DNA of 64,000 nucleotides from Phycisphaerales bacterium (lineage in GTDB: Bacteria > Planctomycetota > Phycisphaerae > WQYP01). The DNA is taken from contig DAIDJN010000040.1 in NCBI GenBank assembly GCA_027451365.1, forward strand, positions 84,711-148,710. The letters are read 5' to 3'. The translations under genes and the position numbers were made by a program. Below the pieces are notes generated by a model that was not told the origin of the DNA, made no database searches, and worked only from the letters and a program-made list of their open reading frames with translations. Below, in pieces: positions 38,069-42,345 of the stretch; the stretch's first letter is position 1, and every line of letters starts with the position of its first letter.

Positions 38069-38080
38069 TTGTGTACACAA
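38069..38080. promoter_or_regulatory. Palindromic operator TTGTGTACACAA upstream of TA operon
   Basis: Perfect 12-bp palindrome followed by a second TACACA, lying within TTGATT-17-AAAAAT. Typical position for TA autoregulation. Confidence 0.55.
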
Positions 38081-38136
38081 AAAAATACACAAAGCCGGGT
38101 ACGCCTGCAGACGGTCATTGGGCCAGCGAGGTTTTT

Positions 38137-38424
38137 ATGCGATTTGTGACCATTCGCGCTGTAAGAATGATTGCCGCATCCGTTCTGCGCAAGTTGCCCC
38201 GTGAAGGGGAAGTCGTTCTTACCCACCATAGCCACCCGATAGCCATTGTTCCTTCTGCTGATGAAAGCAATCTGGAAGATACGCTGCGAACATTGCGACA
38301 AATCCGGGCTCTTCAGGCCGTCGACCGCAGGCAGCGCAGCACTGCAAAACGTGGTGCCGCGCGATTGTCGCGCCGCCGTATTGCCGCGGAAGTTGCCGCC
38401 GTTCGACGGGACCGCAAACAGTGA
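38137..38424 (+). CDS. Phd/YefM-family antitoxin
   Basis: MRFVTIR...EGEVVLT...PIAIV pattern with GAGG RBS. Stop overlaps the PIN gene start (GTGA). Confidence 0.75.
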   Translation: MRFVTIRAVRMIAASVLRKLPREGEVVLTHHSHPIAIVPSADESNLEDTLRTLRQIRALQAVDRRQRSTAKRGAARLSRRRIAAEVAAVRRDRKQ

Positions 38425-38822
38425 GAATTGTGGTCGGCACAAACATCCTTGTGTCCGGCCTGCTTTCGCCTTTCGGGCCACCAGGACAGATTGCCTCCGG
38501 GATCGCCGTTGGCACTTGGAAAGTCTGCTATCCTGCCCGAATAATGACGGAATACGCGGAAGTGCTTTTGCGGCCTGCGTTCGGTTTTGACCCGGGCGAT
38601 GTCGCCACAATAGTGCGCCAGATTCAAATTGAAGGCGAGCTTTGTGCGCCACCACCAACCGCGATGGTGTTACCGGATCCGTATGACTGTCCATTTCTCG
38701 AAGCGGCGCCCGCAACTTCCGCAGATTACCTGAGTACCGGAAACCTTCGGCATTTTCCCGTCAAATCCCGTCAGGGTGTTGCGGTTGTCTCACCCGCTCA
38801 ATTTATCAGGCTTATAAGTTAA
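38421..38822 (+). CDS. PIN-domain (VapC-like) toxin; first catalytic Asp replaced by Gly
   Basis: VVGTNILVS (canonical DTN), EYAEVLLRP, PDPYDCPFLEAA and DYLSTGNLRHF. Confidence 0.8.
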   Translation: MRIVVGTNILVSGLLSPFGPPGQIASGIAVGTWKVCYPARIMTEYAEVLLRPAFGFDPGDVATIVRQIQIEGELCAPPPTAMVLPDPYDCPFLEAAPATSADYLSTGNLRHFPVKSRQGVAVVSPAQFIRLIS

Positions 38823-39117: not shown

Positions 39118-39999
39118 ATGAGTAAACAAAAAAGGGGCCGTATTGACACTCATGAAGTCGAGCGCGTCCAGCAGATCAAGCGGTTGGTGGTTATCGCATT
39201 GTTTTCGGATGACGAACTCATGGAGCGCTTCGTGCTCAAGGGTGGCAATGCCGTTGATCTGGCCTACCAAATCGGTTGGCGTGCGTCAGTCGACATCGAC
39301 CTGTCGATGGCGGACGATTTTCGATCGGAGGATATTGAGGCTATTCGGTTACTTATTGAGAATAATCTTCTGGCTACCTTCCGGCCCGCCGGCTACGAAA
39401 TATTCGACGTCACGATGGAGGAACGACCGGAAAAAGTCAGTGCGAGCCTGAAGACATTCTGGGGAGGTTATTTCCTGAGCTTCAAGCTGATAGAGGCGGC
39501 TAAATACGCGGAGAATTCCGGAAACCTGGAAAATCTGCGCCGGAACGCAGTGCAGATCGGAGCCAGGGGAAAAATCGAAATTGACATCAGCAAATTCGAG
39601 TTTTGTGAGGCGAAAATAGCTCGCGATTTGGAGGGCTATCGGATATTCGTATACACGCCGGAGATGATTGTCTGTGAGAAGCTGCGTGCGATTTGTCAGC
39701 AGATGCGGGAGTATGGCCCAATCGTTGACCGCCATCGCACCGGCAGCGCGCGGGCGAGGGATTTCGTGGATATTTATCAGGTGATGCAGCACTTCAACCT
39801 GGACTTAACGACACCGGAGAATTGTTTGCTTCTGCGCAATATTTTCGACGCCAAGCGGGTGCCGCTGGCATTACTGAATCAATTGCCGGAGTATCGGGAG
39901 TTCCACCGCCCGGACTTTGCGGCTGTAAAGGCGACCGTGAAGGCGGGCGTGGTGCTCAAGGATTTCGACTTCTACTTTGACTATGTATTGGACGTCTGA
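39118..39999 (+). CDS. AbiEii/AbiGii-family nucleotidyltransferase toxin (type IV TA)
   Basis: LKGGNA..., RASVDIDLS, IEIDIS, IVCEKLRAI and RARDFVDIY. Confidence 0.9.
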   Translation: MSKQKRGRIDTHEVERVQQIKRLVVIALFSDDELMERFVLKGGNAVDLAYQIGWRASVDIDLSMADDFRSEDIEAIRLLIENNLLATFRPAGYEIFDVTMEERPEKVSASLKTFWGGYFLSFKLIEAAKYAENSGNLENLRRNAVQIGARGKIEIDISKFEFCEAKIARDLEGYRIFVYTPEMIVCEKLRAICQQMREYGPIVDRHRTGSARARDFVDIYQVMQHFNLDLTTPENCLLLRNIFDAKRVPLALLNQLPEYREFHRPDFAAVKATVKAGVVLKDFDFYFDYVLDV

Positions 40000-40005
40000 C
40001 TGCGG

Positions 40006-40896
40006 CTAAAAGCCCTTGGGGATGTGTAGCCGCCACTCCTTGATGTATTGGGTCTCCTTCATGCCGTGCGTGAGGTAAAAGTCGAATTCAGACGGGAATC
40101 TGCGCAGCAGGTCCAGTTGAGCAGGCCTGTACCCGGCTCGCTCCAGGTAGAATCCGATGACCTGGTGATAAGGATAAAGGTAGCCCAGCTTGTCCAGGGT
40201 GGCGGCCAAAACATTGACCGACACCCGCTCCTTGGCGAGCTGGTACGCCTTGGCGACCTCGCTGACGCCCCCCGCGTAGATGGGGCGCACGGCGATGTCG
40301 ATTAACGTGCGTTCAAGTTTGGTGAAACGCAAGCGGCCCAAGGGCTTCCCGGCACCCATAACCGGCTCCTCAATGACCGCGTAGTTGTTGGTATTCTTTC
40401 CACTTATGATGCAGATGCGAAAATCGCTGGTCTCGGCCACGTTGCCCGAGACGCGGACAGGACGGCGCATCGCCAAATCGATGCCTTTTTGTGTCAATGT
40501 ACCACCAACCGGCCCGGTGCTTTTCTGCTCACTGTTAAGGTACGTGGTCTTGGGCAGTTGCTCCGTAAGGCCATGAAAGGCCATCGCGGTGTAGTGGGAA
40601 AAATAACATCCTGGCCTGAGCATCAGCATGATTTCGTAAATTGAAGCATCGCCCCAGGCGAAGCGAATCTCCTTCTTGTATGGCTGGGGGAAAGGGAAGA
40701 CGATCTTCGATAGCCTGGCCGAGTTGATCAAATACCGGATAAAATCCTGAGTGGTGGTACTCTGGGCGAGGCGCCAAAATTCCCGCTGCTCCGTGAGGAA
40801 TCGCGAAAGATCCTTCTGCCGGAAGACCTTCTCCGGTAGTTGATCGAAATAACGGACAATGTCCGGCTTGGCGATGCTGATCCGGGTTCTATTCAT
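40006..40896 (-). CDS. AbiEi-family antitoxin/transcriptional regulator (type IV TA)
   Basis: YFSHYTAMAFHGLTEQLP and TKLERTLIDIAVRP.YAGG, with an N-terminal wHTH-like region. Confidence 0.85.
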   Translation of the reverse strand: MNRTRISIAKPDIVRYFDQLPEKVFRQKDLSRFLTEQREFWRLAQSTTTQDFIRYLINSARLSKIVFPFPQPYKKEIRFAWGDASIYEIMLMLRPGCYFSHYTAMAFHGLTEQLPKTTYLNSEQKSTGPVGGTLTQKGIDLAMRRPVRVSGNVAETSDFRICIISGKNTNNYAVIEEPVMGAGKPLGRLRFTKLERTLIDIAVRPIYAGGVSEVAKAYQLAKERVSVNVLAATLDKLGYLYPYHQVIGFYLERAGYRPAQLDLLRRFPSEFDFYLTHGMKETQYIKEWRLHIPKGF

Positions 40897-40906
40897 GGGC
40901 CGTCCT

Positions 40907-41187
40907 AGTCACTGGGATTATATATAATCCCAGTGACTGGGGTATGTCAAGGCGTATGGAACGCCTATTTGGCCAAATGATGCGACCAAACCACTGCATT
41001 TCAGTAAATTGTGATCAGAACTGATAGGCTGCATTAGGTATTATATATAATACCTAATGTCGCAATGATTCGCCTATACGAAATTAGCCACAGCTCGCGC
41101 GAGACGGGCTAGCAGCGGCGGCCCAAGCCGACACGGTCAAGGTAATTTACCAGTGCATAAGCATTATATATAATGCTTATACACTGG
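40907..41187. repeat. Array of three palindromes with common core ATTATATATAAT at an exact 123-bp period
   Basis: Cores at 40917-40928, 41040-41051 and 41163-41174. Palindromes: 40907-40938 (32 bp perfect), 41032-41059 (28 bp perfect), 41157-41180 (24 bp perfect; extends to 41150-41187 with one mismatched pair). Confidence 0.95.
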
Positions 41188-41508: not shown

Positions 41509-42345
41509 TTGCATACTGCCCCCCTCGCCGCTGGCTTGCCTAAATGCCGCGCTTGGGGGACGATTCCGCCTATAGCGAAGCTTACCGTACAAAAGATTCG
41601 TGAACTGGCGCTGGATATTGTGGCACAAACCCCGGGTGGCGTACGCTATCAACCCCTTCGCACAAGAATTCTTGAGCAGCATCCCGAAACCAACAGCAAC
41701 ACCATATCCGGCGCAATTTGGAACCTTGACGCTATTTTTCCCGATAAGATTACCAAACCAAGCCGCGGGCTATTTAAGGCGGCAGGTACCGACCTTGAGG
41801 GTGATGTCGTTGCTTTCGGAGTCCCGGTGCAGACGGGATCCAAGGGCAAAAAAATCAACGAATCCGATTTTTACGACGGCTTCGCCGACTGGCTCCGCGA
41901 TGACCTTGGCGAGGTAACGGTCGCAAAGAGCCTGGGCGGCGCGTCATTGAAATCCAAATGGGGCACGCCCGATGTCGTCGGGGTGTACAAGCCGCTGGGA
42001 CGCGACCTTATCAAATTTCCCCTGGAACTGGTCGCAGCGGAAATTAAAATTGACCCGCAGGCTCCAGTGGTTGCATTCGGACAGGCGATCGCCTATCGCC
42101 TTTTCGCCAGCAAAACCTACATCGCAATGCCCAACACGCTAACCGAAGAAGACCAAAGCAGGCTTGAAGCGCTGTGTATGCTTTTCGGCGTCGGTCTGGC
42201 GCTATTTAACCTGGACCCGGAAAAGCCGGAATTTACCGTCCGGGTACGGGCGCAACGGTTCTCACCGGATATGTTCTACGTAAATGAATTCGCCGACCGA
42301 TTGAAGAAATCTGATTTAGAACTCTTTGAAAATCTGTTTGGCTAA
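41509..42345 (+). CDS. Putative wHTH + PD-(D/E)XK endonuclease
   Basis: E..FY, TPDVVG, AAEIK and GQAIAY motifs with an N-terminal HTH-like domain. Start uncertain (TTG 41509 after AGGA). Confidence 0.7.
   Translation: MHTAPLAAGLPKCRAWGTIPPIAKLTVQKIRELALDIVAQTPGGVRYQPLRTRILEQHPETNSNTISGAIWNLDAIFPDKITKPSRGLFKAAGTDLEGDVVAFGVPVQTGSKGKKINESDFYDGFADWLRDDLGEVTVAKSLGGASLKSKWGTPDVVGVYKPLGRDLIKFPLELVAAEIKIDPQAPVVAFGQAIAYRLFASKTYIAMPNTLTEEDQSRLEALCMLFGVGLALFNLDPEKPEFTVRVRAQRFSPDMFYVNEFADRLKKSDLELFENLFG

Follow-up and report, generated by a model that had tools for sequence, protein, structure and literature searches.

In the canonical AbiE system, that of S. agalactiae, the two genes form a bicistronic operon and a single pair of 23-bp inverted repeats covers the antitoxin promoter; the outer 11 bp of these repeats are perfect, and there are 4 mismatches and a gap of 3 nt (PMC3985639). 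AbiEi neutralises the toxin AbiEii through induced auto-phosphorylation; the S. agalactiae pair was not protective when challenged with 32 coliphages (bioRxiv 10.64898/2026.01.19.700257). A role in defence is therefore not assumed for the subfamily considered here. The Rv2827c/MenA4 system of Mycobacterium tuberculosis is also an operon, and carries four 23-bp repeats with 13-bp gaps in 131 bp (PMC7319586). AbiE regulation is presented solely by the S. agalactiae inverted-repeat model in the available sections of a 2026 lactococcal review (PMC13064643).

Here we analyse an AbiE pair in a 64,000-nt stretch of DNA (the window) from a Phycisphaerales bacterium, in which three long palindromes lie upstream of the antitoxin gene. 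Together the three palindromes make up a single copy of a control element that precedes a widespread kind of AbiE. The feature is real and family-wide, and the system is an AbiE member by its proteins, not by its gene order or operator design. An AbiE kind combining non-operonic genes with variable-arm palindromes is apparently undescribed: no published account of this arrangement was found in a literature covered mostly outside subscription journals.

Results

Genes and palindromes of the window

The two genes of the window are convergent, tail to tail with a 6-nt gap, and do not form an operon (Table 1). The antitoxin matches the PADLOC AbiEi profile (E=6e-18), its Pfam AbiEi_1 match lies under the cut-off, and its structure model (pLDDT 92) has Rv2827c as closest fold (1zel, Z 14.5, rmsd 4.5, 242 aligned residues, similar length), followed by the S. 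agalactiae AbiEi (6y8q, Z 13.1, rmsd 4.8, 186 aligned). Like the S. agalactiae system, it thus combines a winged-helix AbiEi with a DUF1814/AbiEii protein carrying the nucleotidyltransferase motif. Residues 85–253 of the AbiEi model, the C-terminal domain, align to nucleotidyltransferase folds (MenT1, Z 9.5, rmsd 3.1, 141 aligned). On inspection of the alignment this domain lacks the DxD, and it is therefore probably a pseudo-enzyme.

Table 1. Position of the features around the palindromes, in window coordinates.
Feature	Coordinates	Strand	Description
Second toxin-antitoxin-like pair	38071..38822	+	Weak Phd/YefM and PIN_3 matches; just upstream of abiEii
abiEii-type nucleotidyltransferase toxin	39118..39999	+	Pfam AbiEii PF08843 (E=4e-23); PADLOC match; GG...RxSxDxD motif
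abiEi-type antitoxin	40006..40896	-	296 aa; N-terminal winged helix and AbiEi C-terminal domain
P1, proximal palindrome	40907..40938	.	16-bp arms, loop-less, perfect 32 bp; centre 40922/40923; core start 40917; longer form with one mismatch, 40904-40941
TTGACA, -35-like hexamer	40945..40950	-	22 nt from the P1 centre; promoter scan without call there
P2, middle palindrome	41032..41059	.	14-bp arms, perfect 28 bp; core start 41040
Promoter-like site	41146..41174	+	Overlaps P3; directed away from abiEi (promoter scan)
P3, distal palindrome	41150..41187	.	19-bp arms, 38 bp, one mismatch; core start 41163
Nuclease-like gene	41509..42345	+	278 aa

An earlier note on this DNA had placed the three palindromes, their self-complementary arms and the starts of their shared 12-nt core where we measured them again, and had put P1 10 bp upstream of the antitoxin start, a distance confirmed here (ATG at 40896). 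The 12-nt core has 3 matches in the window against 0.02 expected, a number reached in 0 of 100 shuffles, and a genome-wide scan found the exact core three times in the whole 4.06-Mb genome, always in the window. P1 and P2 are the two longest perfect loop-less palindromes of that genome. The -35-like hexamer beside P1 recurs at another locus, L002, in the same register relative to its unit. P1 is probably an AbiEi operator lying over the abiEi promoter. The spacers, which the note had judged unrelated by eye, indeed show no mirror symmetry about P2, and we rejected on this ground the idea that P3 mirrors P1 about P2. At the gathering level of Rfam the array gave no match, and no tRNA was found near the palindromes.

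The neighbouring genes were also inspected. The PIN protein of the second toxin-antitoxin-like pair begins MRIVVGTN. PIN domains usually have an Asp as first catalytic residue; a Gly occupies that place here, and the protein may therefore be inactive. The promoter-like site over P3 points at the nuclease-like gene, whose product belongs to Atlas clusters auto-named restriction endonuclease (score 0.97–0.98) and has no Pfam, PADLOC or NCBIfam match; the gene was rejected as a part of the system, being present at 0 of the 90 other loci tested. Four further AbiEii-family matches lie on contigs C64, C57, C54 and C24 of genome G000, none of them with palindromes of this kind.

The palindromes accompany the antitoxin gene

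Relatives of the antitoxin numbered 5,220 among 6,679 candidates scored, and the AbiE subfamily comprises 723 clusters at 50% identity (E up to 1e-30). The occurrence of abiEi is patchy, with 9 of 401 genomes of the phylum and 18 of 401 of the class. Loci were taken from 2 GTDB matches, the best 80 of 434 metagenome matches, genome searches and 22 of 48 plasmid records, and 105 were kept after removal of duplicates and of loci with less than 60 nt upstream. The named records belong to at least five phyla: Planctomycetota, Pseudomonadota, Bacteroidota, Bacillota and Campylobacterota.

Relative to abiEi, the toxin gene is convergent in 87 of the 105 loci, divergent in 6 and co-directional in none, so that the canonical bicistronic abiEi-abiEii operon is found at no locus of the set. 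The remaining 12 loci have no toxin match; flanks are short in 9 of them, and the divergent side of L072, one of the three others, carries a more distant AbiEii-family gene. All six divergent loci belong to lactic acid bacteria or streptococci (L104, L169-L173). There the palindromes lie between the divergent genes, except at L173, where none was found, and their arms are nearly identical between units; so placed, they could act on abiEi and abiEii alike.

At least one loop-less palindrome was found upstream of abiEi in 100 of the 105 loci, a scan proposed by the earlier note. Among the 90 loci with more than 400 nt upstream, 79 have two to five palindromes, 6 have one and 5 have none. Thirty-three other abiEii loci, mostly co-directional, served as controls: a single unrelated palindrome was present in 5 and an array in none. 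The 16-mer core was found in 4 of 45 genomes of the window's own family, and each of these four has this abiEi. No palindromes were found upstream of abiEii in convergent loci, and the DNA outside the upstream zone held 4 unrelated palindromes in 271,673 positions. Units are kept at L002, where 5 kb of downstream DNA holds no toxin.

No abiEi relatives were found in viral contigs and phage records. Viral sequences gave 42 core matches (22 distinct), with no abiE match and with 23–59% pairing at positions 10–14 from the centre, so that most of them are not extended into arms. In four viral contigs (L134, L139, L144 and L147), distinct sites with this core have arms that reach at least 14 bp, with no abiE match within 2.5 kb; these sites are possible decoys, captured sites or chance occurrences.

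At L001, a 48-bp direct repeat (328-376 and 2621-2669, 41/48 identical) brackets the palindrome-abiEi-abiEii module in the manner of an insertion scar. L001 is alone among 41 loci in having flanking repeats above control, and the idea of a circularising module whose outward promoter would drive the toxin was rejected for this reason. The upstream regions of the toxin genes are unrelated between loci, which also counts against such a module, and often begin right behind other genes.

A conserved core and free but paired arms

Positions were counted outward from the palindrome centre. We first consider 142 sites from 71 loci that were picked on the core only, a choice free of pairing pre-selection. 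Their arms are paired at 90–96% from position 6 to 14, at 70% at position 15 and at 51% at position 16; 13 of the 142 sites are poorly paired. Positions 11–13 contain 0.05–0.19 bits of sequence information (155 units), and there are weak base preferences at positions 14–15. The comparisons within loci used 237 units, pre-selected by the pairing of 12 of 14 positions. Among units that share a locus, positions 2–5 are 94–100% identical and positions 10–14 only 32–47%, while within a unit positions 10–14 are 94–100% complementary. Where one unit has a base of its own at positions 10–13, its partner is still complementary in 97–100% of cases (87–116 cases per position). The proposal that self-complementarity is conserved rather than arm sequence thus holds for the window and extends to the family.

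Arm length was determined for 212 units. It is 14–15 bp in 126, shorter in 19 and at least 18 bp in 28; the longest arm is 36 bp, besides a 71-bp arm at a contig end that is possibly an assembly artefact. Long arms of 27–40 bp were noted at L010 (-232, -128), L037 (-89), L122 (-165) and L120 (-107), and in L120 the middle unit is the mirror image of a complete neighbour as far as the contig reaches; a genuine fold-back duplication and an assembly artefact are both possible. The median arm is 14–15 bp in all four GC classes, so that the length of 14 bp is not a melting threshold. A few sites depart from the common anatomy: at L089, where both frames are open, the arms of two cores (-139 and -25) do not complement each other; L031 carries a hybrid site (-22) and an abiEi stop at codon 51; L070 has one degenerate site (-165), a core without symmetric arms; and a 1-nt bulge is retained in one unit of L041 and in one of L045.

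Cores fall into TATAAT, TATACT, CATGC, AACGCT and other classes, some of them GC-richer (GCATGC and GCGTTAACGC types). Core type clusters on the AbiEi tree, with 13 changes against 35.4 for shuffled assignments and 0 of 200 shuffles reaching that value (84 rows, quick tree). A wing motif, PY[KR][KR]E, is associated with the TATAAT core (21 of 23 against 2 of 59); mutual information puts other columns higher, and the link between motif and core may reflect shared ancestry only.

Arms change in pairs

Arm evolution was followed on the same pre-selected kind of unit, with a spanning set of close pairs (28 non-independent edges, 62 orthologous units) and approximate spacer alignments. At positions 9–12 we counted 51 double changes and no single one, which bears out the arm covariation that the earlier note had proposed to look for. 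Positions 13–14 gave 25 double changes, 5 single and 2 doubly unpaired, and single changes dominate from position 15 outward. The tally of arm changes in orthologous units is 64 double against 2 single, and a looser selection (41 edges) gave 80 double, 6 single and 2 other changes. P2 itself differs from its orthologue at L003 by paired changes at positions 12–14.

Corrected divergence is 0.24 at positions 9–13 against 0.50 in the spacers, and double changes occur at 0.48 of the spacer rate. A simple two-step model yields a relative rate of 0.03–0.08 at 2–5% mismatch, and about 40–50% mismatch would be required to reach 0.48. According to this model, which is crude and was applied to edges that share ancestry, selection on pairing alone would be too slow for the observed rate. 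Paired changes faster than stepwise compensation argue for copying of one arm onto the other in a single step; raised mutation at the arms combined with selection is an alternative.

Template switching homogenises and lengthens repeat arms (PMC5941160, PMC13100816), and the long-arm tail of the units fits this process. As in template-switch homogenisation, which also acts at transcription-factor sites, the units display both paired arm changes and arm expansion; the process is a general, genome-wide one, and the available text of these two papers describes no family-specific fixed edge at 14 bp. Double changes are present at position 14 even where position 15 is unpaired, and ordinary anchored template switching leaves such changes at the outermost pair, without an outer anchor, unexplained. 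The bulges kept at L041 and L045 speak against very fast correction everywhere. Contigs from four DNA runs gave no strand-switch joint at the units, a material that can reveal such joints but not prove that they are absent; no RNA run was among the sequencing runs listed as carriers.

Promoter overlap and spacing

Sixty-two proximal units of the homologous loci are no more than 60 nt away from the start of abiEi. Sigma70-like promoters overlap units in several registers: of 100 proximal units, 28 have one directed toward abiEi and 1 has one directed away from it, and of 139 distal units the figures are 10 and 11. The stacked bidirectional promoters envisaged earlier are thus partly retained, with regard to the overlap, and not for the proximal units, where a promoter in both directions occurs in 1 of 100 against 28 of 100 facing abiEi.

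The exact 123/123 spacing put forward in the earlier note is real in the window and does not extend to homologous loci, where units are spaced by 51 to 176 bp, mostly 95–125 nt. Of 52 comparisons between neighbouring spacings, 9 agree within 4 bp where 5.9 would be expected (p=0.12), so equal spacing is not enriched, and a 123-bp period was rejected as a functional constant. Spacings are phased with a best period of 11.2 (R 0.27, p=0.003, 117 spacings); under stronger thinning the best period is 9.2, about tied with 11.0 (p=0.014, 88 spacings). Of the four alternatives in the earlier note, the multi-site operator is the best supported. As to its looping platform, the phasing of sites at about 11 bp is weak and unstable to thinning, and is no more than suggestive.

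Discussion

From the anatomy of the units, their family-wide linkage to abiEi, their paired evolution and their overlap with promoters, we infer that the palindromes are operators through which AbiEi controls its own synthesis, and we give this reading a probability of roughly 0.6. The operator part is supported by several observations: units occur in 100 of 105 loci and arrays at none of the controls, they persist at the toxin-less L002, and their core type tracks the AbiEi tree. It also agrees with the repression exerted by AbiEi homologues through inverted repeats at their promoters (PMC3985639, PMC7319586). Two AbiEi winged-helix domains would bind the AT-rich core (positions 1–8) in a head-to-head arrangement. 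The proximal site would cover the abiEi promoter and the distal sites further or outward promoters, resulting in autorepression of the antitoxin, while the toxin would be transcribed independently from its unrelated upstream DNA. The convergent genes might plausibly interfere with each other by antisense transcription. Arm positions 9–14 would not be read as sequence; a mutation in one arm would be copied to the other, or erased from it, in one step of fold-back, template-switch synthesis, which would occasionally produce arms of 20–36 bp or more. The edge at 14 bp would represent either a defined, protein-set reach of copying or selection for a hairpin or cruciform of at least 14 bp.

The sharp and GC-independent nature of this edge suggests that a hairpin or cruciform is under selection. 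A further reading, which we regard as possible and rather doubtful, builds on this: each unit would extrude as a cruciform or hairpin, in its minimum form a 12-bp stem with a 4-nt TATA loop, and AbiEi would recognise or trap the structure by reading the stem beside the loop, needing a duplex but no sequence out to position 14. Repression would then need negative supercoiling, supplied for example by convergent transcription of abiEi and abiEii. The position of the pairing edge, the constant median arm length and computed hairpin energies of -9.7 to -15.4 kcal/mol are in line with extrusion, as is the central pair, the core position most often unpaired (90–92% paired). The ColE1 cruciform has a perfect stem of similar size, 13 bp, and extrudes under negative supercoiling, and AT-rich loops can nucleate extrusion; its loop has 5 nt and its AT-rich flanks are required (PMC3105387), whereas the present units are known from their sequence and hairpin energies. 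However, L089 is intact with two cores at the usual places and non-complementary arms, and the hybrid site of L031, the degenerate site of L070 and the bulges of L041 and L045 also argue against an obligatory structure. The AbiEi proteins that have been characterised bind probes of linear duplex DNA (PMC3985639, PMC7319586), and the GC-richer cores should extrude less easily. Extrusion is compatible with self-operators whose arms are copied, and would supply the selective force for the 14-bp floor. Tentatively, the AbiEi proteins of this subfamily could be structure-specific repressors that bind or trap a 14-bp-armed cruciform at their own promoters, the same bound structure driving the one-step rewriting of arms with its 14-nt reach. 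Antitoxin synthesis would in that case be gated by supercoiling, produced either by the convergent transcription of the toxin gene or by changes that a phage or plasmid induces, and a self-correcting, sequence-free operator would have spread over bacterial phyla.

Ordinary duplex operators, in which AbiEi would have a base preference at every position and symmetry would be a by-product of that preference acting on both half-sites, are highly improbable: known AbiE operators are inverted repeats and positions 14–15 have weak preferences, but positions 9–13 contradict this reading, unit-unique bases at 10–13 being nearly always matched by their partners.

We see very little room for an array of transcribed hairpins and spacers acting as RNA antitoxin, guide or substrate, another option of the earlier note. 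A transcript reading through from a distal promoter would fold at each unit, and most spacings fall within 95–125 nt. However, mismatches on the sense strand at positions 2–14 (8 G-T, 11 A-C and 37 others in 237 units) have no G-U bias, and the symmetry therefore belongs to DNA, not RNA; spacer length is variable, Rfam is silent at gathering level, the nuclease-like neighbour is confined to the window among the loci tested, and a transcript would start inside the proximal units because these overlap the -10 region. The conserved repeats and period and the G-U covariation of a type III antitoxin or CRISPR-like array are thus not those of the units.

Sites for recombination, resolution or hairpin telomeres have a similarly small chance: the 28-bp length and TATA-rich core of the units resemble targets of tyrosine recombinases and protelomerases, some arms are very long and many plasmid loci have a recombinase inside the fetched flanks, but these plasmid enzymes include tyrosine as well as serine recombinases and vary in position, a count over 74 ORFs flanking non-plasmid loci gave 1 integrase and 1 Y1 transposase, L001 alone among 41 loci has repeats around the module above control, the core tracks AbiEi, the AbiEi fold matches include no recombinase, and no cognate enzyme is conserved or consistently linked to the units, a test that an enzyme acting in trans would escape.

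The operators proposed here share with S. agalactiae AbiE an inverted repeat over the antitoxin promoter (PMC3985639), and with Rv2827c/MenA4 the use of several sites (PMC7319586). Unlike the S. agalactiae operon, the subfamily never has co-directional genes, and instead of one gapped 23-bp repeat pair with conserved outer ends it has two to five gap-less 28-bp sites with a conserved centre and arms that are free but paired. The Rv2827c/MenA4 repeats also differ from the present units in being tandemly packed and sharing a consensus (PMC7319586).

Since a large subfamily breaks the operon rule, operon-based rules and promoter models miss how its toxin is restrained. With hundreds of sites, a sharp boundary and paired substitutions, the units document palindrome self-correction in nature with unusual clarity. 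Two long-standing questions become directly testable with them on small natural plasmids: whether selection in bacteria favours short cruciforms as regulatory structures, and at what rate arms are converted at a protein-bound site.
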